Source of the DNA: an uncultured virus (IMG/VR IMGVR_UViG_3300001460_000019)
Taxonomy: Duplodnaviria > Heunggongvirae > Uroviricota > Caudoviricetes
Length of the DNA: 20,000 bases
Direction: 5' to 3' (one strand)
Virus record (IMG/VR): IMGVR_UViG_3300001460_000019
Location: 55,416-75,415 of that record
Part shown: piece by piece, positions 983 to 15,677 of the stretch
How the letters are laid out: each line of letters starts with the position of its first letter
Numbering within the stretch: the stretch's first letter is position 1
Made by a program: the position numbers and the translations under genes
The notes under the pieces: model-generated
What the model was told of the DNA's origin: nothing
What the model saw: the letters and a program-made list of their open reading frames with translations, nothing else
Databases searched by the model: none

Positions 983-3900
983 ATGGCTAACATTAAAAAC
1001 TTCGGTTTAGCTGGTATTGGCTCAGACGTACAATTTGGTAAATCAGGTGGTAGATTGGTATACGATTCATCATCAGCATTTTTCAAATTTACAACTGACG
1101 GCAGTACATTAACACAAATCAGAGCGGCTTCTCCATCAAACGCAACTGACGTAGCAACAAAATCTTATGTTGATGCTACTAAATCAGGCCTTGATGTAAA
1201 AGACTCTGTACGTGCGGCTACAACTGGCAACATAACTATCGCAACTGGCTTAAATGTAGGTGACGCAATCGACGGCGTAACACTTGCAGACGGTGATAGA
1301 GTACTAGTTAAGAACCAAACTACTGGTTCTGAAAACGGTATCTACACAGCAGGTGCATCTCCGGCAAGAGCAACTGATTTCGATGAGAACTCAGAAGTAA
1401 CTGCTGGTGCTTTCTTCTTCGTAGAAGAAGGTTCAACTAACGCTGACTCTGGTTTCGTTATCTCAACAGATGATGATATCACAGTTGGTTCAACATCAAT
1501 TGCGTTTACTCAGTTCTCAGGTACAGGTCAAATTGTAGCTGGTAACGGTTTAGACAAAACTGGTAACACACTGAGCGCCAATGTAGATGATTCATCACTT
1601 GAAATCAACTCAGACGCACTTAGAATTAAATCAACGTATGCAGGTCAAACATCACTTACAACTTTAGGTACTATTTCAACTGGTACTTGGAATGCAACTG
1701 ATATTGGCGTAGCACACGGTGGTACAGGCGCTTCATCAGCCGCTGATGCTAGAACTAACTTAGGTTTAGCAATCGGTTCTGACGTACAGGCGTTTGACGC
1801 ACAATTGGCTGACATTGCTGGCTTAACTCCAACAGACGGAAACATCATCATTGGTGATGGTTCAAACTTTGTATTAGAGTCAGGCGCAACAGCAAGAGCA
1901 TCATTAGGTTTAACTATTGGTACTCACGTACAGGCATTTGATGCACAGTTGGCTTCTATTGCAGGCTTGGCAGACACAGACGGTAAATTCATCGTAGGTT
2001 CAGCTTCAGGTTTCGTAGCAGAAGACGGCAACACAGCAAGAACATCACTAGGCTTAGGCACTGGTGACACACCAACTTTCACAGGTGCGGCAATGGGTTC
2101 AGCGGCTATTACAGGCGTTGCAGATCCATCGAACGCTCAAGATGCGGCTACTAAGGCGTATGTTGATGCCTCAATTGCTTCATCAAACGAAATCGGTGAA
2201 TTATCTGACGTAAACATTACATCACCAGCAGACGGTTCTATGTTATTATATGACACAGGCAACTCTGTTTGGATTGATTCAGCTATGTCAGGTGACGCTA
2301 CATTGGCAGACACAGGTGCAATTACACTTGCTAACTCTGATGCAACTAGAACAAACCTAGGTTTGGCTATTGGTACAAATGTTCAGGCATTTGACGCACA
2401 ATTGGCTGATATCGCAGGTTTAACTCCAACTGATGGTAACATCATTATTGGTGACGGTTCAAACTTCGTATTAGAATCAGGTGCAACAGCAAGAACTTCT
2501 TTAGGTTTAGGCACAATTGCAACACAGGCGGCTAATAACGTAGCAGTAACAGGTGGTTCAATCACTGGTGTTACTACTTTCTCAACTGGTACATTAGGTT
2601 CAACAGCAACTATTGATGGTTCAATGGCTATCACTGGTGACCTAGCAGTAACAGGTGACTTAACTGTTTCAGGTAACTCTATTACTTTAGACGTTGGAAC
2701 AGTTACATCAGAAGACAAATACATGCAAGTAAACAGTGGTGCTACATCACAAGAAACTGGTTTAGCTGGTGGTATCGAGATCAAAAGATCAAATACTGCT
2801 GACACAGACCAATTTGCATTTGTTAACTTTGATGATTCAAATGACTCTTTCACATTCAAAACTGGTTCAGCTAACCAGGCTTCAGTAGCAGACGCAACTA
2901 TGCGTTTTGGTACAATTGCCGCTGGTACATGGAACGGTTCTGTAATAGGAAGAACATACGGTGGCTTTGGTACTTCAATCTCAGGTCACGGTACAAACTC
3001 ACTTGTTGAAGCAGACGGCGGCGAAATCGGCGTAGGTTCAGCGGGTCAATACTTAAGATCAGACGGAACTAACTTCTCAGCTTCTGGATTAGCGGCATCA
3101 GATTTATCTGGTACTGTTGCGGCGGCAAACGGTGGTTTAGGTACAAACATCTCTTCTTTCTCACAAAGCTCTATCATCACTACAGACGGTGACGGTACAG
3201 TTTCAGAGTTAGGCAAAGGTGCAAACTCAACTGTTCTTAAAGTAAGTTCAGGTGGTTCTCTAGCATACGCAAAAGTTGATATGACAGCAGACATCACAGG
3301 AGCAACTCCAGTAGCAAACGGTGGTACAGGTTTAACAGCAGTTGGTACAGTAAACAAATACTTAAGATCAACTGGTTCAGTTAACCAATACGACTATGTT
3401 ACTGCATTAAGAGATGCGGCTGGTACATCAGCAATTGAAGTTTCAGGTACATTAACTGATAACATCAAATTGGTAATGACTAATGCGGCAGACAAAGTAA
3501 CATTACAAGCTACAGATCCAGATGACGGTGCGGCAAACATCGACCTAGTTCTTAAAGGACAAGGCGACGGTGTTGTTGTAATTTCTGAATCTTCAGGTGG
3601 TAACTCACTTGTAATGGCTGATGATAACTTAGACTTAACAGTATCAGGTGGTGCGGCTTCAGGCGCGGCGGCTGGTGATGCAGTTATCAAAGGTGGTAAC
3701 GGTACAGGTGCTCACGCATCAGGTGACGTTTTAATTAAAGGTGGTACTGGCGGTGCTTCAGAAGGTAAAGTAAAAGTACTTGACTCTTCTAACAATGAGA
3801 TTGCTATTTTCGAAAGAACAGCTTCGGCTATCAACGAAATTTCAATCACTAACGCGGCGGCTTCAGGTGCTCCTTCAATTGCATCAACTGGTGGCGACAC

Positions 3901-4390
3901 AAACATTTCATTAACACTATCTCCAAAAGGTACTGGTGTAATCACAACTTATGATGGTTACGAAGCAAACGTATCTGGCGATGACGATCTTGTTACTAAG
4001 AAATGGGTTGAAGACAACGTTGTACAAACTGTTGATGATCTAACTATTAGAACAGCAGTAGGTACTGGCGCTTCTTCAGTAACAATTGGAACTATGCCAA
4101 ACGCAGGTTCAACAACTTACTATGTATCAAAAGTAACTGTTCACGTAGCAACAGGCTTCTCAGGTGATTCAGTGGATCACATCACAGTTAGTGATGGTTC
4201 ATTAGCACTTGTGGCTGACGCAGACGCGGACGTTTCAACTGCTGGTTCATACGTAGTTGACCTTCCGTTTGCAACAGCAACGGCTGGTGGCGCAACAATT
4301 ACATTAGCATTTTTAAAATCTAATGCTTCAGCGTCAACACCAACAGGTGGTTCTGCAGTAGTTACAGTTGAATATAAAGCATTAACATAA
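983..4390 (+). CDS. large tail fibre / structural protein (1135 aa, Gly/Ala/Ser/Thr-rich)
   Basis: GGGAG RBS; phage fibre motifs DVKDSVRAATTGNI...GDRVLVKNQT...ENGIY, D(V/A)ATK.YVD stalk motifs, GTWN...I...GG motifs and 48-aa internal repeats. Confidence 0.8.
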   Translation: MANIKNFGLAGIGSDVQFGKSGGRLVYDSSSAFFKFTTDGSTLTQIRAASPSNATDVATKSYVDATKSGLDVKDSVRAATTGNITIATGLNVGDAIDGVTLADGDRVLVKNQTTGSENGIYTAGASPARATDFDENSEVTAGAFFFVEEGSTNADSGFVISTDDDITVGSTSIAFTQFSGTGQIVAGNGLDKTGNTLSANVDDSSLEINSDALRIKSTYAGQTSLTTLGTISTGTWNATDIGVAHGGTGASSAADARTNLGLAIGSDVQAFDAQLADIAGLTPTDGNIIIGDGSNFVLESGATARASLGLTIGTHVQAFDAQLASIAGLADTDGKFIVGSASGFVAEDGNTARTSLGLGTGDTPTFTGAAMGSAAITGVADPSNAQDAATKAYVDASIASSNEIGELSDVNITSPADGSMLLYDTGNSVWIDSAMSGDATLADTGAITLANSDATRTNLGLAIGTNVQAFDAQLADIAGLTPTDGNIIIGDGSNFVLESGATARTSLGLGTIATQAANNVAVTGGSITGVTTFSTGTLGSTATIDGSMAITGDLAVTGDLTVSGNSITLDVGTVTSEDKYMQVNSGATSQETGLAGGIEIKRSNTADTDQFAFVNFDDSNDSFTFKTGSANQASVADATMRFGTIAAGTWNGSVIGRTYGGFGTSISGHGTNSLVEADGGEIGVGSAGQYLRSDGTNFSASGLAASDLSGTVAAANGGLGTNISSFSQSSIITTDGDGTVSELGKGANSTVLKVSSGGSLAYAKVDMTADITGATPVANGGTGLTAVGTVNKYLRSTGSVNQYDYVTALRDAAGTSAIEVSGTLTDNIKLVMTNAADKVTLQATDPDDGAANIDLVLKGQGDGVVVISESSGGNSLVMADDNLDLTVSGGAASGAAAGDAVIKGGNGTGAHASGDVLIKGGTGGASEGKVKVLDSSNNEIAIFERTASAINEISITNAAASGAPSIASTGGDTNISLTLSPKGTGVITTYDGYEANVSGDDDLVTKKWVEDNVVQTVDDLTIRTAVGTGASSVTIGTMPNAGSTTYYVSKVTVHVATGFSGDSVDHITVSDGSLALVADADADVSTAGSYVVDLPFATATAGGATITLAFLKSNASASTPTGGSAVVTVEYKALT
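1751..2491 (+). repeat. 48-aa internal repeat in the tail fibre: copies at 1751-1894, 1895-2038 and 2348-2491
   Basis: RTNLGLAIG(SD/TN)VQAFDAQLADIAGLTPTDGNIIIGDGSNFVLESGATA; copies 1 and 3 are 46/48 identical in protein, copy 2 is more divergent. Confidence 0.9.
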
Positions 4391-4720: not shown

Positions 4721-4794
4721 TGCAGTGTAGTGTAGTGGTAACACGTTAGTCTCAGTAGCTAGAGTTATGAGTTCAATTCTCATCACTGCTACCA
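4721..4794 (+). tRNA. atypical tRNA, anticodon CAG (nominally Leu), encoded CCA
   Basis: Cloverleaf: acceptor TGCAGTG/CACTGCT + ACCA; D stem GTGT/ACAC with AGTGGTA loop; anticodon stem TTAGT/GCTAG with loop CTCAGTA; 4-nt variable loop; T stem ATGAG/CTCAT with TTCAATT loop. Confidence 0.85.
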
Positions 4795-4966: not shown

Positions 4967-6175
4967 TTATACTCTACTATTAATTTTATTATATATTGTA
5001 CACATGTCTTTCGCTGAATAGTTTCTAATATGATCATAGTAGGATAAAAAGTTTTTTGTGTCTTTCCATGTTAAATGACTGTTTGCTTTTTCTATAATGC
5101 TTGTAAAACTTTTTACTTGCGGATATGTTTCAATGTAAGGTTGACATTCTTTTATTATTTGTGTTCTTATTTCTTTTGGAACAATACCAATATTAAGTGC
5201 TTCAGGCCACATAACTAGTACCGGTGAAAATTTAGTAAAGTTATATTCTTTACCATATTTTAATAAGTCTGGCAATTGATCTAAATTTAATAATTGTATT
5301 GCTGACGTTAGTGTTGACTTAATATTACTATATTGTTTAATAGTTTCATTAAATGATTGCTGTATTTGTTTTGTCTTTTCCCATTTACCAGGCCATCTAA
5401 TATATTCAAATGTACTACCTATACCATCTGTAGACCAGTTTATATCTACAAGTTTAAACTTACTAAAAATAGGTATCCATTTAGTTACATCAGTTGTGCC
5501 ATTTGTAACAATAATAACTTCTATGTTTTTAGCATATGATGTTTGTGAAAGTTTTTGTATAAATTCTTTAAACCCATCTAATAATGTTGGTTCGCCACCT
5601 GTAAACTTTAATCTTAGTAAGTTTGGTGCCTGCTCTAATAACTCTTGTAAGTTATTTCTATCAAAGTCATTGTCTTCACCGGTTGATACTATTAATTCTT
5701 TTAGATCATTAGGCACAGGGTATTTTTGCTTTTCTTTTGTATGTAAGGAAGAACTATGTCCATCACACATTACACACGCAAGATTACATTTGTTACCAAA
5801 CTTTAGATCTAAAGTTCTAAGTGTTAAGCCACCTTGTTCTTTTATTTTTTGTACCGTTCCCGGAAATTTATTTTCTATTTCAATTGATTGATTAAGTCTT
5901 TTACTTAATGAATATGCTCCGTCTTTTTCATATTGATAACACCTACGACATTCTTTAATAGGTTTGTTACTTAACATTTTTTCTCTTATATTATTTAGAA
6001 CGTTATTATTTTTCCATGTATCAATTATTTGATTATTGTACATGTCTGAATCTATTGTATCTGAAAAACAACACAATTGCCCGTGTCCTTGTGCTGTATT
6101 ACATATTTCTGTAAAAGGCAACACACAAAAAGAATTACCGTGTTCTTTAATAAACTTTTGATAGTCTTTATGCAT
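4967..6175 (-). CDS. radical SAM protein with N-terminal twitch/SPASM-like Cys domain
   Basis: CNLACVMC (CxxxCxxC), FTGGEP, VTNGT and STDG motifs; N-terminal CVLPF...LCC...CRRC auxiliary Fe-S motif. Confidence 0.9.
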   Translation of the reverse strand: MHKDYQKFIKEHGNSFCVLPFTEICNTAQGHGQLCCFSDTIDSDMYNNQIIDTWKNNNVLNNIREKMLSNKPIKECRRCYQYEKDGAYSLSKRLNQSIEIENKFPGTVQKIKEQGGLTLRTLDLKFGNKCNLACVMCDGHSSSLHTKEKQKYPVPNDLKELIVSTGEDNDFDRNNLQELLEQAPNLLRLKFTGGEPTLLDGFKEFIQKLSQTSYAKNIEVIIVTNGTTDVTKWIPIFSKFKLVDINWSTDGIGSTFEYIRWPGKWEKTKQIQQSFNETIKQYSNIKSTLTSAIQLLNLDQLPDLLKYGKEYNFTKFSPVLVMWPEALNIGIVPKEIRTQIIKECQPYIETYPQVKSFTSIIEKANSHLTWKDTKNFLSYYDHIRNYSAKDMCTIYNKINSRV

Positions 6176-7451
6176 TCAATGTACCACCTATTACAGGAGT
6201 AAGATTCTTTACTGATTTTTTAAACATTGCTTTAGTTATATCGTGATGCTGTGCTTTAGGTACGCACAAACCACAACCACAAACTTTGTTTGGACAAGTT
6301 ATCACTGGCATAGTTCCGGTAGCAAACTGTTTTTCTAGTTTGTTTATTATTTGATCACACTCAGTAATAGTTCCTATCTCTCCCTTCTTACCTCCAAAAT
6401 TTGCTCTGCATGTTTGATGATGTAATATTTTATTATACTCTTGTTCAATGTGTAGCCAATTCCAATTTATCATGCATGACCATTCTTTATATTCAGTTGA
6501 ACACGCAAATACAGATTTTTTCCAATCATTAGTATCTAGCTTTACATTGTCTTTCTTATATTGATCTTCATCTAGTGTATAAAAAGTTCTTTGCCCACAG
6601 CAAGGTCTTCCTAATGCTTTTCTTGTATTGACTTCTTTTGGTTTTGGTGATATTTCTTTTACTACTTTTGGTTTTTCTTTTAGAGTATGTACAACTTGTT
6701 TTTGTTGTTGTACTTTCTTTTGATCATCTTTATATTCATACTCTGCATCTTTATTTGCATCAGGCTTGTTTATTTTTTTGTTTTTATTTGTCCAATAGTT
6801 TCTAAACCATGCATGTTGTTCCGGAGTATATCGATGTACATACTTACTATCTTCATAGCTTTCACCAATGATACGAGGTACAAACTTTATATTATCGTCT
6901 GTAAACCTATCAACGAGCTTCATACATTCATCAAAGTATTCTGGTTTAGCATGTACCATCAAATTAACTTTATATTTGATTCCTGAGTTATGTAACTGAT
7001 ATATTCTTGCAACTACATTATCTTTTATCTTTTGTTTTGCTTCACAATGATAACTTACTGTAATAGAATCAACAGCTTCTATAAGTTTATCACAATACTT
7101 TTGGCTAAATGCTCCATTAGTAGTAACATCAACTAATACGTCTGGATCATTTTGTGCATGTATGTATTGACACATTTCTAAGAAGTTTGGATTGTTAGTT
7201 GGTTCCCCACCTGTAAAACCAATATTCCACTGTCTATCAAAAGTCATTTGTGATTGCATTAATTTTTTATACTCAAAAACAAATTTACTTGTTTTAATTA
7301 ATGTTTCTAAACTTGCATGTGAAGAAGTATTGTTGTGTCTATGTGCAGGACAATAGGTACAGTCGTAATTACATCTTAATCCTAAATCCCATGTAACTTC
7401 AAATGAATAAGGATTTTGTATATCGTTGTCTATTGCTATTACTTTGCCCAT
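6168..7451 (-). CDS. radical SAM protein with C-terminal Cys-rich extension
   Basis: CNYDCTYC, FTGGEP, TTNG, VSYH; Lys/Gln-rich linker, then PCC...C...C...C...CPNKVCGCGLC. Confidence 0.9.
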   Translation of the reverse strand: MGKVIAIDNDIQNPYSFEVTWDLGLRCNYDCTYCPAHRHNNTSSHASLETLIKTSKFVFEYKKLMQSQMTFDRQWNIGFTGGEPTNNPNFLEMCQYIHAQNDPDVLVDVTTNGAFSQKYCDKLIEAVDSITVSYHCEAKQKIKDNVVARIYQLHNSGIKYKVNLMVHAKPEYFDECMKLVDRFTDDNIKFVPRIIGESYEDSKYVHRYTPEQHAWFRNYWTNKNKKINKPDANKDAEYEYKDDQKKVQQQKQVVHTLKEKPKVVKEISPKPKEVNTRKALGRPCCGQRTFYTLDEDQYKKDNVKLDTNDWKKSVFACSTEYKEWSCMINWNWLHIEQEYNKILHHQTCRANFGGKKGEIGTITECDQIINKLEKQFATGTMPVITCPNKVCGCGLCVPKAQHHDITKAMFKKSVKNLTPVIGGTLNA

Positions 7452-8587
7452 GTTTCAATTTCTTTAAACCAAGATTCAAATTCTGGTCTTATGTTTAGTA
7501 TGTTTGTGTTTCTCACTTTATCAAGTGCATTAATCCAGTTATAAAATTTATGTTGTAATTGTTTTTCTTTTTTAAAACCTGATTGTGGAATTTTAATATC
7601 TTTATTTGTTTCTAACATAGAGTCTGGCAATACCGATCTTACATCTAAGTGTCTTGGAGTATATACATAGTTTACATTATGATATACATTATCAAGGTTT
7701 TGTTCTTTAATCCATTTTTTAGCTAGTTTAGATTGATCATACGTTGTACAATGTATTGTGTCTACTATACTTAATCTTGATGCTACTTTAGATAGTTGTT
7801 TGATATTTTCTTTTATTGTTTCTAAAGTATATATGCCTCCTCTTGAATATTGATAGACATCTTGTTCCCAAGCATCAACACTACATAATAGGTCAACGTT
7901 TTTAAACTTTCTTAAAATAGTATCAATATTTTTATTATATAATGTAAGATTAGTAATGATTGAAAGATTAATACTACTTCTTCCTATACTTAATAGAAAC
8001 TCTAAAAATTCAAATAGCATAGGTTCATAAAAAGGTTCCCCGCCTGATATTTCAACTTTGGTTACTGACTCCCACCATTGTTTACTATTTCTTAACCACC
8101 ACTTGTCTGGTAACTTATCATATGAACTTATTGCTTTTTTAGGAAACATACCAAGTTCAGAAAGTTTTTGCTCGTCTTTTACCCAACCGGTTGATCTTTT
8201 ACTATTACACATTACGCATTTTAAATTACATTTGTTTGAAAAGTCAATTTTTAAAAAGAAAGGATTGTTATTCTGTTTTCCATGAGCTCCAATTACTGGA
8301 TTAGAAAAGTGATTAATTTTATGTCTAACTGATCTAGATCTTTTATTTTCTGTTGTTGTTGCACTGTCTTGAGAAAGACACTGGTCGCATCTACCTTTAG
8401 GTAACGGACCGTTAGCTAATGGCTCAATTGCTTTAATGAATTCCGAAGACTGCATCTTTTTTAGAAAGTCTCCGTCCTTGTCTAGGTTAAATTCCATTGG
8501 TTCACCTAAGGCACAACATGGTGTTATTTTCCTGTCATGTCTAAGCCATATATGAGACGTTCCTGCGTTACACCATTTTTTTGTCAT
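7439..8587 (-). CDS. radical SAM protein with N-terminal twitch/SPASM-like Cys domain
   Basis: CNLKCVMC, ISGGEPF, ITN, SVD; N-terminal WC...PCC...CDQC; same architecture as 4967-6175. Confidence 0.9.
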   Translation of the reverse strand: MTKKWCNAGTSHIWLRHDRKITPCCALGEPMEFNLDKDGDFLKKMQSSEFIKAIEPLANGPLPKGRCDQCLSQDSATTTENKRSRSVRHKINHFSNPVIGAHGKQNNNPFFLKIDFSNKCNLKCVMCNSKRSTGWVKDEQKLSELGMFPKKAISSYDKLPDKWWLRNSKQWWESVTKVEISGGEPFYEPMLFEFLEFLLSIGRSSINLSIITNLTLYNKNIDTILRKFKNVDLLCSVDAWEQDVYQYSRGGIYTLETIKENIKQLSKVASRLSIVDTIHCTTYDQSKLAKKWIKEQNLDNVYHNVNYVYTPRHLDVRSVLPDSMLETNKDIKIPQSGFKKEKQLQHKFYNWINALDKVRNTNILNIRPEFESWFKEIETWAK

Positions 8588-8627
8588 AGTTTTTCTCTAG
8601 TATTGATATATCTATACGTAAATGTAT

Positions 8628-9224
8628 TTATTTGCTGTTTTTGTACGTCTGTGTAACGTAATCGTAGATGTCTTTCCAGTTAGCAACCTGGTGTACATTT
8701 TTATTTGCGTAGTGAATATTGTAAGCATGTTTCATTAGTACAGGCTTTAATCCAACCTTTAATGCGTCTTCTAAGTTAGAAATTCTATCGTCAATGTATA
8801 TTAATCCGCTGTTTTCAAAGTCCATCATAGCATCTAGTTTAGGTGCGCCAGCTGGTAAACATCTTACATCAACAAATACATCAGTGTCAAAGTAATCTTC
8901 AATGTTTAGGTAACGATAATATTGTGCAATCGGTTTATCACTTAATGATGTAATAGCAATAAAATGATAACCTTCTTCGTGTAGCTTCTTAATATATTCT
9001 TCAGACTGTCTCATTGGTTCTAAAACAGAACAAGCCATAGAGGCATTGAACTCTTCTCTTTTCACAGTAGCTTCTTGTAAAGAAATACCAAACTCGTTTT
9101 GTATTTCTGCGTCATGATGTATAACTCCTGTAGAAGAATAGCCTTGCAATTCCATCCACTTTACGAATGCTGTATGCCAATCAAAGACAACTCCATCAAT
9201 ATCTGTTAAAATTATTTTGTCCAC
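8628..9224 (-). CDS. HAD-superfamily phosphatase (5'(3')-deoxyribonucleotidase-like)
   Basis: Motif I ILTDIDGV, motif II AITS, motif IV YIDDR..N, C-terminal HAYN...V.NW..I as in phage 5'-nucleotidases. Confidence 0.85.
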   Translation of the reverse strand: MDKIILTDIDGVVFDWHTAFVKWMELQGYSSTGVIHHDAEIQNEFGISLQEATVKREEFNASMACSVLEPMRQSEEYIKKLHEEGYHFIAITSLSDKPIAQYYRYLNIEDYFDTDVFVDVRCLPAGAPKLDAMMDFENSGLIYIDDRISNLEDALKVGLKPVLMKHAYNIHYANKNVHQVANWKDIYDYVTQTYKNSK

Positions 9225-9377
9225 TCTGCTCTCCCATTATTTGTAGATTGCTCAACCTACATATATATTTACTGTAATTTAGTAGTAGTCAAACATACCA
9301 CTTTAATTAATAAACTTCTGTTAATGGATTCTTGCACTAGTTTTAATAATAAATATGTAAAAGTAAAAAGGTAAAAA

Positions 9378-10037
9378 ATGATTGTAGAAACATCACAAGA
9401 TACAATAGAAATAAACGTTGATTCAAACAAAAGAAACATTGGTATAAAGTTGAGCGGTGGACTAGATTCATCCATTGTAGCCTATCTAATTTGCTTGTAC
9501 ATACGTGATCATCGACCAGACTGTACCATTGTACCATTTACAGTCATACATGGTTTAAAACCTCATAATATATGGTATGCTTCTAAAGTTAAATGGTGGT
9601 TAAAAAGAGAGTTCCCTAATGTTAGATGGCATAAAGAACATTTTACAATACATTCAGACGGTAGTGATTATAACGAACGTATGGAAGAACTACAAAGTAT
9701 CTTAACTAAAAACAAAATTATAGATTGTAAGTTTAGTGGTGTTACAGCTAACCCTCCAATAGAAGTTTATAAACAGTGGTCACCTGATGACCCAAATGAC
9801 GAACCATCTCCAGGTCGTGATAAAGAACAGAAAAGAAAAGACACAGCACATGGAAGAATACTTGTTAATATTGATAAGAAAGGTGTTGCAGAACTTTATA
9901 AGAAGTATAACTTAATGGACACTTTATTTAATGTAACAAGGACATGTGAGGAAACAGAATTAGATCCTTCAATTACTCCGCATTGTGGTAAATGCTGGTG
10001 GTGTGAAGAAAGACTATGGGGCTTTGGTAAACTGTAA
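9378..10037 (+). CDS. QueC-like PP-loop ATPase (7-cyano-7-deazaguanine synthase-like, divergent)
   Basis: PP-loop LSGGLDS near the N-terminus; C-terminal TRTCE...HCGKCWWCEER Zn-binding motif of the QueC family. Confidence 0.75.
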   Translation: MIVETSQDTIEINVDSNKRNIGIKLSGGLDSSIVAYLICLYIRDHRPDCTIVPFTVIHGLKPHNIWYASKVKWWLKREFPNVRWHKEHFTIHSDGSDYNERMEELQSILTKNKIIDCKFSGVTANPPIEVYKQWSPDDPNDEPSPGRDKEQKRKDTAHGRILVNIDKKGVAELYKKYNLMDTLFNVTRTCEETELDPSITPHCGKCWWCEERLWGFGKL

Positions 10038-10417
10038 ATCTTTTTTGAATTAAAACTCTATATATAGAGTTCTAAGATGTTTTTATGTAGCCTACAAGGC
10101 GATAACTATTATTACTTGAGTAACAACAAAGACGAGGCATATAGCATAAGCTAACAGACGCCGTAGATGTACTTTGTTTATTGAATAAACTTTGTTTATT
10201 CGTTTAGGTTATGTTTGGTAGTAAGCAACCCAAGAGCACTGCAAGGCAGTCAGGTTTAAAAAGGCTTTTAAATTTAAGCTACCGTTATAAACAATAATAA
10301 CCTTAGAAGACTTTAGGTCTTCATTTGTGAAAAAATGTTTTTGATTTTTTCCCCGGCTGATGCTTAATGCATCCTAAGTCCGGGGTTTATGCATTCTAGC
10401 ACTCCATAAATAGTTAT

Positions 10418-11518
10418 ATGTCTTGGGCACTTAAAACAGATCAAATTACACGTTTACAAATAGAGCTTACAAATTATTGTAATGCTGGTTGTCCTCATTG
10501 TGCAAGAGTAAACTATTTAAATTCAGATTGGCTTAAAGGATACAAACAAGAATCACCATACCCAGTCAGCATAAATTCAACACATTTAAATATAGACAGA
10601 TACAAAAAAATGATTACAAATGATAAATGGGAAAGTCTACGTGAAATACACTATTGTGGAAACTATGACGAACCAACTGTACATCCAAAAATTATGCAAT
10701 TTATTGATTATACTGTAGAATATCTACCACAAGCAAAGTCTATTAGTATTGCTACCAACGGTGGTACTAGAGATAGAGAATGGTGGAAACAATTAGGAGA
10801 AAAAAGCAATCAATTAAAACAAAAAAATATTGATTTAAGAGTTGTATGGGGTATAGATGGCCTAGAAGATACAAATCATATCTATCGCAAAGGTGTTAAT
10901 TGGAATAAATTAAAAGAGAATTATACAGCATATAATCAAGCAGGTGGTAATTCAACATGGCAAATTATTGTATTTGATCATAATGAACATCAATTAAATG
11001 AAATTGAATCCAATTATAAAGCCTGGGGATTTAATTCTATTAAAATAATCAACAGCAACAGAAAAAATCCACAGATTAAAATTGATAAAAGCCCAAAGAA
11101 AAAATATATACAGCATGATACTAGCAATCAAATAAAAAATACACCAATTAATAAAAAAATACCACCATTTTCTATGCCCAAAACCACAGCAACAGTAAAA
11201 AAAGATACCATTTTTTGCAAGGCTTTAGAAAAAAATAGCATAATTAAACGAAGTCTTTTTATCACAGCACATGGATTTATTACTCCTTGCTGTTGGATGG
11301 GGACTGATCGTAGCCTCAAAGAAGGTGCTTCATCATTTTCACAAGGACTTGATCCAGAAATTCATTCAATTTATTCACAAGATTCAATAACAGATATATT
11401 AAATTCAAAGTATTTTTCTCAGCTACAGTCAGCATGGAACAATAGATCCTATATAACCTGTAATGAAAAATGTTCCACAGCACATAATCCTGATATAAAA
11501 AGCATAATTAAAAGGTAA
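10418..11518 (+). CDS. radical SAM/SPASM-twitch domain protein
   Basis: CNAGCPHC, G..DEP, ATNGG, GIDG; C-terminal C...G.ITPCC...C...C auxiliary cluster motif. Confidence 0.9.
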   Translation: MSWALKTDQITRLQIELTNYCNAGCPHCARVNYLNSDWLKGYKQESPYPVSINSTHLNIDRYKKMITNDKWESLREIHYCGNYDEPTVHPKIMQFIDYTVEYLPQAKSISIATNGGTRDREWWKQLGEKSNQLKQKNIDLRVVWGIDGLEDTNHIYRKGVNWNKLKENYTAYNQAGGNSTWQIIVFDHNEHQLNEIESNYKAWGFNSIKIINSNRKNPQIKIDKSPKKKYIQHDTSNQIKNTPINKKIPPFSMPKTTATVKKDTIFCKALEKNSIIKRSLFITAHGFITPCCWMGTDRSLKEGASSFSQGLDPEIHSIYSQDSITDILNSKYFSQLQSAWNNRSYITCNEKCSTAHNPDIKSIIKR

Positions 11519-11526
11519 TATAAATA
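11519..11526 (+). promoter_or_regulatory. T4-type late promoter (TATAAATA) upstream of the nitroreductase
   Basis: Exact TATAAATA 5 nt before ATG 11532. Confidence 0.55.
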
Positions 11527-11531
11527 CTTTT

Positions 11532-12302
11532 ATGAGTATGGATAAAGAAAAAGAGTATATTAATACTATTAAAAAGTGCCAACGCAATTGGGACCTAACA
11601 AAATCCATACCTCAAGAGCATATTGATCACTGGTTATGGATAGCTCAAAATGCCCCAAGCAAACAACATGAAGCATATTATGATGTTTATTTTATTCGCA
11701 AAGCTGAAGTAATCAAAGAAATGCTAGAATACACATGGGGTTTTACAGCCACAACAACACCACCTAGCTGTTGGAGAAATCCACAAATGGGTGCTAATTT
11801 TTACATGTGTTTTGTAAGCAAGTATCCAGATACAATGCGTAACTATGAAGTAGATGGCGAAGGTCGTTCAGAAGAATATCAGGGCAGACGTGATAACTGT
11901 TTGGCTTCAATTGGACTGGCAATGGGCTTGATTGCACGTTCGGCCGCGGAAATGGGCTATGCAACAGGCTTCAACAAGAACATGAGTTCACCTCCAGACA
12001 AGGAATATTGGTGGAAACGTTTGAACATATTGGATGGCGTAAATGATGGTACGAAAGCACTGGAATATGGCATAGGCATTGGATATCCACAGCAGGATCT
12101 AGAACACACACAGTCAGATCAACATGAAGTATTGATAGGACAAGCCACTGGAGCATGGACAGACAATCCGGGTAAAATAGTGGATATAAAACAGATATCC
12201 GCAGAAGACAACCAAGGTAACATACACTACCTACCCAAAGAAATTAAATTCCCATCATTTTCCAAAGAAAATCGCGACATTAAATGTATAGAGATCAAAT
12301 AG
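11532..12302 (+). CDS. nitroreductase-family (FMN-binding) protein
   Basis: IKKCQRNWD...IP.E.I.....A.NAPSKQH N-terminal signature; ASIGLAMGLIARSAAEMGYATG and GIGIGYP motifs. Confidence 0.75.
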   Translation: MSMDKEKEYINTIKKCQRNWDLTKSIPQEHIDHWLWIAQNAPSKQHEAYYDVYFIRKAEVIKEMLEYTWGFTATTTPPSCWRNPQMGANFYMCFVSKYPDTMRNYEVDGEGRSEEYQGRRDNCLASIGLAMGLIARSAAEMGYATGFNKNMSSPPDKEYWWKRLNILDGVNDGTKALEYGIGIGYPQQDLEHTQSDQHEVLIGQATGAWTDNPGKIVDIKQISAEDNQGNIHYLPKEIKFPSFSKENRDIKCIEIK

Positions 12303-12802
12303 ATCACACACTTGAACAATTAAATCAATTGGAAATGGACCTAGAGCCCAGCTACAGTCGATACGTCAGCTACTACGAACAAAACATCACACAGTACTAT
12401 AAGAATCTGCTGTATCAAGGTTGTGCATGGGCAAACGTAGCCACACACAGCATAGAAGCAGTTGATTGGAGTCGCTATCATACCAACAAATATCGCAGTA
12501 CCACAACAATGAAAACCCACACACAGATGCGTAACATACACAACACACACTATTGCGAGGATGTATATTGGGCACCCGCTTGTATACTCTACAGCACACA
12601 GCCACATGACGGTTTGGCACTGTTGGAGTACATGCCTGAGATAGAACAGTGGTTCGAACAGCACAGCATGAGTGTGAACAAGCCTTGGAAAATGGCCACA
12701 CTAGCAGGCTGTTGGATAGAACAAGGTCTCGGTAACAAGGATAAATTCACTGAATTATATCATAGATTCACAGGCTATGATCTCAAGGACGTTAGGTTCT
12801 AA
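12284..12802 (+). CDS. hypothetical protein (172 aa)
   Basis: Open frame overlapping the nitroreductase end and coupled to the next ORF by TAATG; no recognised motif. Confidence 0.6.
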   Translation: MYRDQIDHTLEQLNQLEMDLEPSYSRYVSYYEQNITQYYKNLLYQGCAWANVATHSIEAVDWSRYHTNKYRSTTTMKTHTQMRNIHNTHYCEDVYWAPACILYSTQPHDGLALLEYMPEIEQWFEQHSMSVNKPWKMATLAGCWIEQGLGNKDKFTELYHRFTGYDLKDVRF

Positions 12803-12990
12803 TGCACTACTGTTTCGTATACGCATACAAAGGCAATATCGTATTAGAAGAATTCTGTGCATACTCAACAAAGAAGCTGATACAAGAACGATTCGACGAA
12901 CTACTAGGTGAAGATTACGACTGTATAGTAATAGACGATATCACAAAAGAACAGTACGAAGCACAGCATAACCCATTTGGCATAAGCTAG
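12802..12990 (+). CDS. hypothetical protein (62 aa)
   Basis: TAATG translational coupling to the preceding ORF; plausible composition. Confidence 0.6.
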   Translation: MHYCFVYAYKGNIVLEEFCAYSTKKLIQERFDELLGEDYDCIVIDDITKEQYEAQHNPFGIS

Positions 12991-13340
12991 TAGCACACAT
13001 ACACACACTTGATCACTACACTATTAGTCTAGAGTGACTGTAACACAGCATTAATGCATGACACACAGTGAAGCAATGTGGATTGTGCATATATCCTTTC
13101 AGTATGAACTAAAAAGAAAGCTATTTTACAGGTACCGTACGAAGCGATTTTGGGGTATAAACACTACACAGATTAGTCTGTTTTTGTATACACAATGTGG
13201 ATAGAAAGTTCCTACCCAAAAGGTAAAACCGTGTCTCTCATTACCCGTATCTGAAGACGATAAAACCAATTTACCTACGCTATAACCATGGCCTCTTAAC
13301 CATTATCAACCGTGTAACCACCATTGATCATCGCTTCCTG

Positions 13341-13489
13341 ATAGTGGGGCAATCAGCTGTTGCTGTCTGAAATAGATCATTCTGATCTAGCCTCCGGCTT
13401 CATATGTGCTCTTGTGCGTATCGTAAACTCATACGCACGGCGTAGCACATACGATTGGGCCCCTGATCAATTGCCCCTATACTCACTAT
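13341..13489 (+). other. multibranch stem-loop element (candidate ncRNA or ssDNA structure)
   Basis: Closing stem GGGGCAAT (13346-13353)/ATTGCCCC (13470-13477) enclosing TAGATCA-TTC-TGATCTA, AGCC-TCC-GGCT and a long hairpin at 13403-13451. Confidence 0.5.
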
Positions 13490-13507
13490 ATACGCTGTAA
13501 CCACTAT

Positions 13508-13550
13508 GACCCCGCTGTAGGGGTTGGCTATACCTGGGACCCCGCTGTAG
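13508..13550 (+). repeat. 13-bp direct repeat GACCCCGCTGTAG x2
   Basis: Exact copies at 13508-13520 and 13538-13550. Confidence 0.85.
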
Positions 13551-13571
13551 CTTATACGGGGTTTGAGGCCA

Positions 13572-13688
13572 CCACAACATGTAGTCATGATTAAATGACC
13601 CCATTTAATTTGGCCACCACTATATCTAGTCTTGAGCATGCGGTCTATGCCTCATGGGCAGTGCTGTGGCCATCACTATATGTAGTAG
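13572..13688. promoter_or_regulatory. three NrdR-box-like palindromes, each preceded by GGCCA
   Basis: CCACAACATGTAGTCA (13572-13587), CCACTATATCTAGTCT (13617-13632), TCACTATATGTAGTAG (13673-13688); all match the core of the NrdR consensus acaCwAtATaTwGtgt. Confidence 0.7.
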
Positions 13689-13702
13689 AGGCCTCTTTGG
13701 GG

Positions 13703-13731
13703 TTGACAGTTGGCCTATATGAGTATATACT
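13703..13731 (+). promoter_or_regulatory. sigma70-type promoter with no downstream protein gene
   Basis: TTGACA (13703-13708), 17 bp, TATACT (13726-13731). Confidence 0.7.
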
Positions 13732-13888
13732 AGTAAATAACAATACATGGGTGGCCTTTACGGCGGGCATCGATCACTGCACGTANACAACCAAGTACCC
13801 AGAACATCGGTGTGCGATCAGTTGCATATTTGGGAACACTCCGTATAGAGCCCCGAGAGTCTGAGATTAAGTTCTCTGGAGTACGATC

Positions 13889-14003
13889 GGTTCAAAGGGT
13901 TCAAAGACACTGTAGGGCTTCAATGACTTCAATGCATCAATGAGACGTCAATGGGGCTCAAAGGCTTCAAGGGGTTCATTGGGACTTCAAAGAGGTTCAA
14001 AGG
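13889..14003 (+). repeat. degenerate tandem repeat, approximate unit GG(T/C)TCAA(A/T)G, about 11 units
   Basis: TCAA/TCAT cores at 13892, 13901, 13920, 13929, 13937, 13948, 13958, 13967, 13976, 13987, 13997. Confidence 0.8.
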
Positions 14004-14074
14004 TGGCGAACGGAGAGTTTAGAATAGGTTCCAGAGACTCGGGACCTAGCTCAGAATTTAAGGATTTTGAGAGG

Positions 14075-14166
14075 TGTTGCAGAAATGCAACAACTAGTCT
14101 AAAAGTGTTGCACAAAAACAACAAACAGCACATGAGAGATCGAGGGGGTGTTGCGTAAAAACAACA
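14075..14166. promoter_or_regulatory. three 18-bp TGTTG-N8-CAACA (TGT-N12-ACA) palindromic operators
   Basis: TGTTGCAGAAATGCAACA (14075), TGTTGCACAAAAACAACA (14106), TGTTGCGTAAAAACAACA (14149). Confidence 0.7.
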
Positions 14167-14211
14167 CCCTACTTAATGGTACTACAGTGTGTGCCATATC
14201 GATACAGCACG

Positions 14212-14304
14212 ACACAACATCTAGTAGATAAAAAGACTAATAATTTCAATGGTTTAACCGTGAAGAACAGACTAACTGCTGTTGTGGTTCACTAGATATA
14301 GTCG
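14212..14304. promoter_or_regulatory. two further NrdR-box-like palindromes
   Basis: ACACAACATCTAGTAG (14212-14227) and TCACTAGATATAGTCG (14289-14304); weaker GGACTATATAATGTGC at 14310-14325. Confidence 0.65.
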
Positions 14305-14446
14305 ATGGGGGACTATATAATGTGCCATGGTATTTAGGTCAGAGTTCGGCCCATCCTTTGAGTATCGATTTTATCTTTCTAGATTTATTTGGTTCTAGTT
14401 AATTACAACCGGCGGATAAAGTTTCTGTTCCCTTATCTTATTATTA

Positions 14447-14474
14447 ATAATAACATAGGTTCCTATTGTGTCAA
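14447..14474 (-). promoter_or_regulatory. leftward early-type promoter pointing into the non-coding region
   Basis: Minus strand reads TTGACA-caataggaaccta-TGT-TATTAT-taataat, the same architecture as the rightward early promoters. Confidence 0.7.
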
Positions 14475-14510
14475 CCAGAATAATTTAAATCTTTTTGGCC
14501 AATTAGGGGC

Positions 14511-14538
14511 TTGACACATTGCGTAATGGTGCTACTAT
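14511..14538 (+). promoter_or_regulatory. early promoter P1
   Basis: TTGACA, 16 bp ending TGC, TACTAT. Confidence 0.8.
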
Positions 14539-14562
14539 AAACATATGAACAAAGGAGCACAC

Positions 14563-14895
14563 ATGCAAATAAAAAACTTTAGAGTGGCTTACAGCGAATA
14601 TGACGTTACCTCTACGCTGTACCAAAAGAAAACTGCTGAGGAACTAGCACGTCAACTAGAAGAGGTTGCACCAACTCTAGAAACTGCCAAGTACTTTGTA
14701 CACCTGGCACAGTGGAACCTAAAAGATCACGGACATGTTGATGGTTTGGGAGATCCTTTATGCACACGCCTAAGTGGTGTAAAGAACACAGAGGACCTTG
14801 AGGGTCTGTTTATACACATGAAGGGTGAATGGCATTATTCCGATGATGGCATCTACTGGGAACCAACCAAGATAGAGTTTCCAAAAGCCGCGTAG
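14563..14895 (+). CDS. hypothetical early protein (110 aa from the RBS-supported start)
   Basis: AAGGAG lies before ATG 14563, making it a likelier start than 14545; directly behind P1. Confidence 0.75.
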   Translation: MQIKNFRVAYSEYDVTSTLYQKKTAEELARQLEEVAPTLETAKYFVHLAQWNLKDHGHVDGLGDPLCTRLSGVKNTEDLEGLFIHMKGEWHYSDDGIYWEPTKIEFPKAA

Positions 14896-14921
14896 TATAA
14901 CATCTTTTTGCAAACTGTCAA
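14894..14921 (-). promoter_or_regulatory. antisense promoter facing ORF 14563-14895
   Basis: Minus strand reads TTGACA-gtttgcaaaaaga-TGT-TATACT (16-bp spacer, extended -10). Confidence 0.65.
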
Positions 14922-14969
14922 GTGTAATGTTGGGGACAACATTACACTGTCCCCTATGCATTTACCCTC

Positions 14970-14997
14970 TTTACAATATGCACAATTGTGCTATATT
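14970..14997 (+). promoter_or_regulatory. early promoter P2
   Basis: TTTACA, 16 bp ending TGC, TATATT, then the shared AATAATATAACAAA leader. Confidence 0.7.
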
Positions 14998-15029
14998 AAT
15001 AATATAACAAAAGCAAAGGAACAACAATA

Positions 15030-15206
15030 ATGTACAACAGTAAAACAGCAAAACCCGTATACTACAAACTGCCTATAAAAACTTACGCACAACTTGAAAA
15101 AACAATTGTGCGTTTACAAGCAGACACACGTATGTGTTACACAACAAAGCAACAGCACATAAAAAGTATGTTTGCACAATACAAAAACAATACATTTATA
15201 ATATAA
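15030..15206 (+). CDS. small basic hypothetical protein (58 aa), not in the ORF track
   Basis: AAGGA RBS behind P2; MYNSKTAKPVYYKLPIKTYAQLEKTIVRLQADTRMCYTTKQQHIKSMFAQYKNNTFII*. Confidence 0.65.
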   Translation: MYNSKTAKPVYYKLPIKTYAQLEKTIVRLQADTRMCYTTKQQHIKSMFAQYKNNTFII

Positions 15207-15221
15207 CAAAGGGACAAACAC

Positions 15222-15677
15222 ATGCAAAAATGGGAAAGTTACAAAGACGGCGAAGAATATTTTTTAGGCAACAAAGAAACGATTACTGTAAGCACAAGCA
15301 AACAAGGTGCACAGCGAATTAAAGACATAGTAGATGGCGTGTACGAATGTAGTGATTGGAAATGTAAACACTGCGGTGAGAAACACATAGACGAAAGAGA
15401 CTATGCAGACTTTGTGGATAAACAAGAAGAGTACGTTGCAGATGCTGTTGCTGAGATAAGAGAAGCAACAACGTTAGAACAAGTTAAGGAACTGTTGGAA
15501 GAACATTTTGTATACGATGGTATGGATGGTTTAGATTGTATTAACAACAGAGTGGAAGGGGACTTTGATTGGACTTGCGAAGTTGTAACAGAGAACTGCG
15601 ACGGCGATGTTGCTTGTACAAAGTGTGGCAAGTACAACAACGATGACATGGAGGACATTATTAAAAAACTTAAATAA
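15222..15677 (+). CDS. acidic hypothetical protein with two CxxC pairs (putative Zn ribbon)
   Basis: AAGGGA RBS; CKHC and CTKC; Asp/Glu-rich. Confidence 0.8.
   Translation: MQKWESYKDGEEYFLGNKETITVSTSKQGAQRIKDIVDGVYECSDWKCKHCGEKHIDERDYADFVDKQEEYVADAVAEIREATTLEQVKELLEEHFVYDGMDGLDCINNRVEGDFDWTCEVVTENCDGDVACTKCGKYNNDDMEDIIKKLK

Follow-up and report, generated by a model that had tools for sequence, protein, structure and literature searches.

The stretch analyzed here, referred to as the window, comprises the final 20 kb (20,000 nucleotides) of a 75,415-bp marine phage fragment (IMG/VR record IMGVR_UViG_3300001460_000019), and the element in question is a set of three TGTTG-N8-CAACA palindromes that lie inside a 1.55-kb stretch without a convincing gene, representing the main non-coding control region. 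The CheckV completeness of the record is 21%, implying a phage genome of approximately 350 kb, and DNA of this phage is present in marine runs from 14 studies. The non-coding stretch is flanked on its left by an AT-rich block of genes for radical-SAM and other enzymes, which ends at 12990, and on its right by a block of small genes starting at 14545, and it exhibits a G+C content of 42%, compared to 34% for the genome. This 1.5-kb control region is densely built, and its centre is marked by the palindromes:

14075..14092, no strand: palindrome 1, TGTTGCAGAAATGCAACA, with 7-bp arms around GAAA
14106..14123, no strand: palindrome 2, TGTTGCACAAAAACAACA, with 5-bp arms
14146..14169, no strand: palindrome 3, GGG-TGTTGCGTAAAAACAACA-CCC, with its core at 14149-14166

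These are the only three exact matches to TGTTG-N8-CAACA in the window, where 0.08 are expected by chance and none of 200 dinucleotide-preserving shuffles reached three palindromes; the starts at 14075, 14106 and 14149 and the spacings of 31 and 43 bp reported in an earlier sequence-only reading of this DNA are thus exact. No further exact copy is present in the whole record, which contains nine hits when one mismatch is allowed (the three exact ones included), and TGTTG and CAACA arms separated by other spacers (0-15) occur at most once each. All three sites share an 18-bp frame in which TGT and ACA are 12 bp apart, and site 3 possesses the extended form GGGTGTTG...CAACACCC. The sites are also direct repeats of the form GTGTTGC-NN-AAA-NN-CAACA (three forward, none reverse and none in the control) and fall short of perfect symmetry, their A-rich centres all having the same orientation. 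They constitute a second repeat family, distinct from the neighbouring boxes, and are located between two clusters of CACTATAT.TAGT-like boxes (putative NrdR boxes in the sequence-only reading), both points being as that reading described them.

A scan of IMG/VR for two palindromes positioned 8-38 bp apart matched at least 119 stretches, a lower bound, as are all such listings, in a collection that includes near-duplicates. The family consensus was derived from 80 fetched tandem loci with 176 unique sites, in which the base inward of TGTTG is a pyrimidine (Y) in 159 sites, the base ahead of CAACA is a purine (R) in 165, and the site centre is A/T-rich. Because the Y and R positions and the A/T-rich centre lay outside the search pattern, the true word is TGTTGY-N6-RCAACA. 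In a motif-independent sample of 80 loci selected by homology to the 198-residue protein of the window, half (40 of 80) carried at least one exact site, and the 729,646 bp of these loci contain 61 exact sites, compared to approximately 0.2 expected by our own calculation from uniform base frequencies. A single-site scan of IMG/VR returned mostly lone chance matches and was uninformative, while a search of the mixed IMG/VR set for TTGAC or other k-mers at fixed offsets revealed no second common motif beyond neighbouring sites. Neither the motif nor six typical 18-mers are described in the full-text literature searched, outside of which such papers could exist. The palindrome is, apparently, a member of a widespread and undescribed cis-element family.

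The association of this word with promoters is best seen in five jumbo phage records (G001-G005), four of which, of 285-354 kb, share a homologue of the 167-residue protein of the window. These records contain 9, 11, 4, 9 and 9 sites, respectively, compared to 0-1 for a reversed control, and 32 of the 42 sites are intergenic according to a crude open reading frame (ORF) call. Sigma-70 promoters with 10 or more of 12 positions matching accompany 32 of these sites within 130 bp on one side, compared to 143 of 960 positions drawn at random, and 29 sites within 60 bp, compared to 75 of 960. As G002 nearly duplicates G001, the count was also determined without it, which leaves 21 promoter-linked sites among 31 (G001 9/9, G003 0/4, G004 4/9 and G005 8/9). 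Most sites precede the -35 box of a near-consensus sigma-70 promoter by 17-67 bp, and the values for the interval between site centre and -35 box cluster around 18, 28.5, 40, 47-51, 57.5 and 66.5 bp, with six of the 21 promoter-linked sites outside G002 falling in the 17.5-19.5 bp class; the commonest site centre lies approximately 53 bp upstream of the inferred start. The promoter is on the A-rich side of the site in 16 cases vs 5 (p 0.027), and the typical jumbo module consists of a site, 8-10 bp ending in TTTTGG, and TTGACC-N17-TATAAT. Identical copies of the palindrome 2 18-mer of the window occur in G001 and G002, and of the palindrome 3 18-mer in G001, G002 and G004. Of note, when the palindrome is 46-67 bp away from the -35 box, an element CTGCTTAAAAA..AG.CAG is often present between the two in G001/G002 (L384, L386 and L390).

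The word is furthermore found in small phages of approximately 35 kb, which fall into two groups with different large terminases (Terminase_3 in 14 loci and Terminase_6N in 11 loci) and carry the tandems ahead of a pair formed by a small ORF and the terminase gene. A small gene of the first group contains the tandems in its 3' end, leaving 24-40 bp to the start codon of terS; in the second group, a G run comes after the tandems, then a spacer of approximately 450 bp and a strong promoter. In L139, L157, L161 and L153/L400, representing one small-phage group and G003, the last palindrome of the tandem is directly followed by TAGGG and a G run, which may correspond to a genome end or cleavage site.

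Bacterial genomes were also scanned for the motif. Exact tandems are present 200-250 bp upstream of Porin_4 genes in the gammaproteobacterial genomes G252 and G015, the only two of 55 genomes in the family of G252 that possess an exact tandem. The palindromes of the G252 tandem are 35 bp apart, approximately 200 bp upstream of the gene, while in G015, recorded as an uncultured Thiomargarita, a TTGCAT-N17-TATAAT promoter puts the site centres near -78 and -114. G141 has one site in the interval separating a Porin_5 gene from a divergent Porin_O_P gene, and a second one ahead of a gene for a BBP2 porin-like protein. These intergenic, A/T-centred sites before porin genes stand against the counts in 401 sampled genomes of the class, which are mostly 0-4 and of the same order as those of the reversed control; sites in G075, G028, G056 and G018 are mostly GC-centred or situated within ORFs.

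The closest complete relative of the phage is G010 (328,149 bp with terminal repeats), and colinearity between it and the window extends across the non-coding region. The elements of this region follow one another in the window, from left to right, as two GACCCCGCTGTAG repeats, three boxes, the 13703 promoter, a (T/C)TCAAWG array, the palindromes, two boxes, the 14293 promoter and a divergent promoter pair:

13508-13520 and 13538-13550: direct repeat GACCCCGCTGTAG, two exact copies 30 bp apart
13567-13691 and 14213-14305: CACTATAT.TAGT-like boxes in two clusters, of three and two boxes, respectively
13703..13731, plus strand: sigma-70-like promoter TTGACA-N17-TATACT, 11 of 12 positions, reading towards the array
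13768..14159, plus strand as judged from the promoter: stretch under contigs from four RNA libraries
13889..14003, plus strand: approximately 11 (T/C)TCAAWG units, 9-11 bp apart, directly upstream of the palindromes
14161..14188, plus strand: putative weak promoter-like sequence ACAACA-N16-TACAGT, 7 of 12 positions, below the threshold of the promoter scan
14293..14321, plus strand: promoter-like TAGATA-N17-TATAAT, 10 of 12 positions, the next rightward promoter, overlapping a CACTAGATATAGT box
14447..14538: divergent promoter pair, minus strand 14474-14447 (11 of 12) and plus strand 14511-14538 (10 of 12)

The order in G010 is the same, with GACCCCGCTGTA repeats, boxes, promoter, CTCAAAG array, palindromes, conserved blocks and divergent promoter pair, and at 1,590 bp the gap that holds the array is longer than any other non-coding gap of that phage. 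G010 possesses three exact sites in 328 kb, two of which are at the array locus with a third, degenerate copy beside them, and a MAFFT alignment pairs palindrome 1 with TGTTGTAGAAATACAACA of this relative. The 13703 promoter is likewise conserved (L409 2550-2578), as are both members of the divergent pair (3302-3275 minus and 3326-3353 plus), and the (T/C)TCAAWG array is kept as the CTCAAAG array mentioned above. Conservation holds for the word in related phages and for the synteny of the array in G010; site number and spacing differ. The site spacings in G010 are 28 and 20 bp and the distances to the flanking conserved features differ too. The 31 and 43 bp of the window correspond to 2.95 and 4.10 turns at 10.5 bp per turn, such that the proposed location of the sites on one DNA face is sound as arithmetic for two spacings only and is not kept in G010. 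Searches for more syntenic relatives with the TCAAAG-array pattern and a conserved downstream block returned unrelated coding repeats and the already known G010 only.

The strong promoters of this lineage follow a pattern of their own, ggTTGACAgat.tcTATA..aTGcTATTAT, often after a hairpin and T run, and the palindrome in this lineage is a single-locus array rather than a general promoter element. Within the window, transcription from the 13703 promoter would start near 13738; a gap of 14 bp separates the last box of the first cluster from the -35 box of this promoter, the -35 box of the 14293-14321 promoter shares bases with the box at 14290-14305, and similar boxes flank the same features in G010 and L417/L418. 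The plus-strand promoter at 14511-14538 serves the small-gene block. The putative promoter at 14161-14188 is a weak lead. Palindrome 3 provides its -35 position in the form of the right arm, and the real-looking promoters at 14293-14321 and 14511-14538 have the same -10/start region.

Contigs from four RNA libraries of four studies, compared with 12800-15300, cover part of the array, such that an interpretation at the level of RNA also comes into view. Contigs of library X15 cover 13860-14142 at a depth of 25 with no differences, as well as 14709-14889; those of X16 cover 13768-13903 and 13915-14100, those of X19 cover 13828-14004, and those of X18 cover 14009-14159 and 14269-14419. Such contigs show neither strand nor ends, and DNA carry-over is possible. 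No contig from any of the four libraries was found over 12800-13767, i.e., the approximately 970 bp before the covered stretch, while the lack of cover over 14160-14268, 14420-14708 and 14900-15300 was not taken as silence. The stretch 13768-14159 is therefore a probable abundant phage non-coding RNA (ncRNA) in the sea, which would hold palindromes 1 and 2 and reach palindrome 3, and the cover fits a transcript running from the 13703-13731 promoter through the UCAAWG array to palindrome 3. A CsrA-type function of this array was dismissed on the grounds that its constant word is UCAAWG and not a GGA repeat.

The predicted fold of 13787-14175 is better than that of shuffled sequences (z -4.35), as is that of its G010 counterpart (z -3.64), and as RNA hairpins palindrome 3 is the strongest (-15.2 kcal/mol, z -4.4), followed by palindrome 1 (-9.9 kcal/mol, z -3.3), while palindrome 2 (-3.2 kcal/mol, z 0.0) is no better than shuffles. 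An intrinsic terminator at the sites was considered and discarded: none was called by the scan, site 3 is followed by TACTTAAT with no T run, and site 2 has a z of 0.0. A G+C-rich hairpin separates the CTCAAAG array of G010 from the palindromes, and because it precedes them the RNA of that phage may end before the palindromes are reached. At the Y/R pair (positions 6 and 13), the mixed type was observed 81, 21 and 22 times in three site sets, in line with the 76.8, 17.4 and 16.6 expected under independence; pair 7/12 is complementary at chance level, and pairs 8/11 and 9/10 are below chance. The half-sites therefore vary independently, the stem positions beyond the 5-bp arms showing no co-variation, as is expected of a dimer bound to duplex DNA. 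Taken with the fixed arms, the fold of site 2 and the terminator scan, this evidence on pairing favours a duplex site that is read by a dimer, with an asymmetric A-tract between the half-sites.

We infer, on the strength of sequence comparison and with a confidence that falls a little short of even, that the palindromes are docking sites for a dimeric host DNA-binding protein acting on transcription. Each palindrome would dock one dimer of this putative protein, reading two TGTTGY half-sites across the A-tract; the half-site centres would be 13 bp apart and, because this spacing exceeds one helical turn, the A-tract centre is probably bent or narrowed. In the jumbo phages and at the porin genes, where the sites precede sigma-70 promoters and mostly turn their A-rich side towards them, they would most likely help host RNA polymerase, either as upstream activating sites or in an architectural role, comparable to the Fis sites of rrnB P1 and to the TGT-N12-ACA element of P2 late promoters. 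In the present lineage, they are gathered into one array of three in the longest non-coding region, at the 3' end of a probable, strongly represented non-coding transcript, with the weak promoter-like sequence and the next rightward promoters downstream on the A-rich side. The bound host protein would control local transcription here, either through activation of the weak rightward promoter with which site 3 overlaps or as a boundary mark between the ncRNA unit and the downstream units. The orientation of the A-tract argues for a rightward target. The sequence-only reading had likewise proposed a platform for a host regulator: binding by a protein, and a host one, fits best, while cooperative phased binding as a conserved feature is not supported, given the G010 spacing.

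A number of observations weigh against docking sites for a host DNA-binding protein. Within the window, the array lacks a consensus promoter at the distances typical of relatives, the nearest candidate matching 7 of 12 positions, and the palindromes lie in a probably transcribed stretch, which leaves room for an RNA role. The strong promoters of the window record and of G010 carry no palindrome within 130 bp, and around the three exact G010 sites no promoter with 11 or more of 12 positions matching occurs at a distance of up to 130 bp. The idea of a promoter element is thus borrowed from more distant relatives, and even among these the four sites of G003 are not near a promoter and only four of nine are in G004, while in the first small-phage group there is no room for a promoter because only 24-40 bp separate the sites from the start of terS. 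Site number and spacing differ in G010, such that the helical phasing is not kept. The bacterial support amounts to three loci in three genomes, with most of the 401 sampled genomes resembling the control, and the IMG/VR counts are lower bounds that include near-duplicates.

As to the origin of the protein, HTH_8 (the Fis-type helix-turn-helix domain) was found in none of five phage genomes and Ogr_Delta (PF04606) in none of five carrier genomes, G010 and the present record (21% complete) included, and Pfam and PHROG scans of the flanking small ORFs returned no DNA-binding family. A gene for a 116-residue protein adjoining the array is present in one of five phage genomes and is confined to this lineage, with no relatives of its product found in IMG/VR. 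All that the 35-kb phages G006 and G008 have in common with this lineage is a tail-fibre domain and two further proteins, and no phage protein common to the palindrome carriers was found in the comparisons made. A host protein is more likely than a phage protein, because the same word precedes promoters in unrelated phages as well as porin genes and no common phage protein was found, and is the simpler reading. The shared fibre domain spans approximately 145 residues at approximately 40% identity between the following protein and a 1,254-residue protein of G006:

983-4390: fibre-like protein of 1,135 residues, the N-terminal part of which was compared with G006 29548-33312

Of note, G006 is itself a 35-kb phage carrying a palindrome tandem, and the fibre domain likeness hints at a shared host group.

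Several described systems approach the palindrome without coinciding with it. In the published literature, the TGT-N12-ACA frame is shared by PpsR/CrtJ, TyrR (TGTAAA-N6-TTTACA), GlrR/QseF (TGTC-N10-GACA) and GacA/UvrY (TGTAAG-N6-CTTACA), and the sequence-only reading was correct, as regards format, in naming PpsR/CrtJ and TyrR. The sites of these regulators also span 18 bp, with a 6-bp centre flanked by arms of 6 bp, and tandem arrangements ahead of promoters are frequent, while arm positions 4-6 here (TTG-Y) differ from all of these regulators. A TyrR box was rejected since it has TGTAAA/TTTACA arms, compared to TGTTGC/RCAACA in all three window sites and TGTTGY as the family arm. With regard to PpsR/CrtJ sites, which would call for a regulator with a Fis-type helix-turn-helix and for a location in photosynthesis gene promoters, HTH_8 was found in none of five phage genomes, and the bacterial copies found precede porin and not photosynthesis genes. 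GlrR and GacA sites precede small-RNA genes. The resemblance to HexR sites suggested by the sequence-only reading did not survive comparison with the consensus TTGT-N7-8-ACAA (PMC5489143): the window sites read TTGC-N6-GCAA, TTGC-N6-ACAA and TTGC-N6-ACAA (family form TTGY-N6-RCAA), with inner words one to two bases too close for a HexR operator. The likeness is to a pseudo-palindrome with TTGT/ACAA that HexR binds as a dimer (PMC5489143), and the invariant outer TG/CA found here is outside the HexR consensus.

Fis and the upstream region of rrnB P1 provide an architectural parallel. The Fis sites at -71, -102 and -143 of that promoter resemble the array in comprising three sites with a spacing of approximately three and four turns and an A/T-rich centre between G/C-containing arms more than one turn apart, as well as in the association with very strong promoters, and phages use such abundant host architectural proteins. 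The differences are that the Fis core is an odd 15-bp G-N13-C, upon which the even 18-bp dyad with its fixed pentamer arms is not superposable, and that the three-site spacing is not conserved in G010. The dyad of P2 Ogr is centred near -55, a position also seen in relatives (the 17.5-19.5 bp class) and at which the window shows no promoter of at least 9 of 12 positions. A TGT-N12-ACA element is described in Ogr-dependent late promoters of P2-like phages (PMC3931495), and the likeness extends to a phage-borne 18-bp dyad upstream of sigma-70-dependent promoters in several copies, also before packaging genes (PMC3931495). The palindrome differs in the TGTTGY arms, in the near-consensus -35 boxes that the relatives' promoters already possess, and in the bacterial copies; an Ogr/Delta element was rejected, with PF04606 found in none of the five genomes (this record being 21% complete).

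The PeSL (promoter-early stem-loop) elements of T4-type phages combine a repeated intergenic palindrome with a strong sigma-70-like early promoter (PMC2839356), and the promoters of this lineage often come after a hairpin and T run. PeSL stems are variable and often G/C-rich terminators, unlike the one fixed word, common to unrelated phages and bacteria, with weak stems and no selection for pairing found here; a promoter link is present in relatives, the arms are fixed without covariation, and no promoter adjoins the window sites. The formats of parS, LexA, CRP/NtcA, CytR and the lux box were dropped on frame or arm sequence.

The first 80 tandem loci from species-representative bacterial genomes were tried as a clue to the host and set aside, consisting mostly of other repeats such as Sulfurovum repetitive extragenic palindromes (REPs) and a GC-centred repeat of Streptomyces. 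The Sulfurovum hits are the published REP GTAGGGTGTTGTACCCCTACAACACC (PMC4690160). On the minus strand, site 3 (14146-14172) reads GTAGGG-TGTTGT-N6-GCAACA-CC, close to that same REP (PMC4690160); because sites 1 and 2 do not possess the GTAG lead, this likeness is probably a coincidence. A REP/RAYT system was ruled out in view of the GTAGGG lead being restricted to site 3, the unconserved family flanks and the presence of three copies instead of hundreds, with no search made for a RAYT gene.

Among the other explanations, the palindromes may be considered as RNA elements, i.e., hairpins in the 3' part of the ncRNA from the 13703-13731 promoter that form or stabilise its 3' end or bind an RNA-binding protein, with the sites of related phages being 3'-end hairpins of upstream transcripts just before the next promoter, in the manner of PeSL. 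This is fairly unlikely. It agrees with contigs that cover 13768-14159 and not 12800-13767, two of which end at palindrome 3 (at 14142 and 14159), with the stability of hairpins 1 and 3 and the better-than-shuffled folds of 13787-14175 and its G010 counterpart, and with the short T run often seen between site and -35 box in relatives; PeSL cassettes also link stem-loops to early promoters and occur upstream of the -35 box (PMC2839356). It is opposed by the shuffle-like fold of site 2 and the mere 5-bp A/U-rich stem of most family members, by the lack of excess pairing beyond the arms and depletion of central pairs, by arms that are fixed, unlike PeSL stems, and by a commonest form, as it faces transcription, of the C..A mismatch type. 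Moreover, no terminator was called, the contigs do not provide strand or end information and may reflect DNA carry-over, and the bacterial copies lie in untranslated spacers upstream of porin promoters. A distinctly doubtful account is that of operators for a phage-encoded repressor or activator that switches the flanking units, comparable to lambda OR1-3 or the Ogr/Delta elements. A single locus in the lineage (three sites in 75 kb; two exact and one degenerate syntenic site in G010) is typical of a phage switch region, and the commonest jumbo site centre, approximately 53 bp upstream of the start, is near the -55 of P2. Furthermore, the 35-kb phage tandems precede the terS-terL late operon, where P2 has Ogr sites (PMC3931495). 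Against this stand the absence of Ogr_Delta and HTH_8 from all five genomes searched for each, the lack of a DNA-binding family in the flanking ORFs, the confinement of the 116-residue protein gene to one lineage, the lack of a shared candidate protein in carriers with unrelated terminases (this record being 21% complete), and the presence of the same tandems ahead of bacterial porin genes.

It is quite improbable that the array acts as a decoy, an idea of the sequence-only reading given here in sharper form, in which sites with no promoter task titrate a host protein of porin or envelope promoters as the phage genome replicates. The lack of a consensus promoter at the usual distance in the window, the freedom of the spacing to vary between relatives, the occurrence of the same word ahead of bacterial porin genes and the two clusters of another box family in the same region would suit it; however, there are only three sites per genome, and those of related phages are promoter-linked, suggesting that the protein is used rather than removed. 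Very little probability is assigned to the array being a cis site for replication, packaging or partition, with an initiator, a small terminase or a partition protein, respectively, as the binder. The sites form a unique cluster in the longest non-coding gap of G010, beside an iteron-like array and A/T-rich DNA, and lambda ori iterons are palindromes with A-rich centres; the 35-kb phage tandems are located just before terS, in one group followed by a G run, much as the lambda cosB sites precede Nu1. However, TerL is 100 kb from the array in G010 and far from the sites in jumbo phages, where 9-11 sites are scattered and promoter-linked; the GC skew of G010 follows gene strand with no origin signal, unrelated terminase families would need one specificity, and the bacterial copies precede porin genes.

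If the palindromes are indeed read by one host protein, the word would form a link between bacterial porin genes and the strongest promoters found in several lineages of uncultured phages, and would, if this is true, name an undescribed regulator and offer a handle on host prediction for uncultured phages; the window adds a new context, that of an array inside a transcribed non-coding region. A long shot, to which we attach only slight probability, is that the word is the site of a global protein of marine and freshwater gammaproteobacteria which drives porin and other strong promoters and has been copied by many unrelated phages. This lineage would have moved the sites into one array inside an ncRNA gene, such that replicating genomes compete with porin promoters, thereby lowering the synthesis of outer-membrane receptors and blocking superinfection, while local transcription reports the availability of the protein.

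The remainder of the region and record yielded further observations. A search of the region by blastn against deposited phage genomes returned no match, nor did an Rfam search at E values up to 1, and a single N is present at 13786, within the non-coding region. G010 carries three copies of the GACCCCGCTGTAG-type repeat at the corresponding position, and L417/L418 contain single CCCCGCTGT words. A non-coding block at 14312-14368 (…GGTCAGAGTTCGGCCCAYCCTTTGAGTATCG…) is 82-97% identical in L417-L419 and is also present in G010, always downstream of boxes; it has no match to Rfam or to tRNA. One tRNA gene was identified in the window:

4721-4794: tRNA-Leu(CAG)

Radical-SAM/SPASM genes are unusually many, with four in the window (4967-12802) and at least nine more upstream in the record (L130-L132). 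The same part of the window and the rest of the record also encode a QueC-like protein, an NT5C-type nucleotidase, a nitroreductase-like protein and a TonB-dependent receptor, together with fatty-acid desaturases, a carbamoyltransferase, PhoH and a SET-domain protein.

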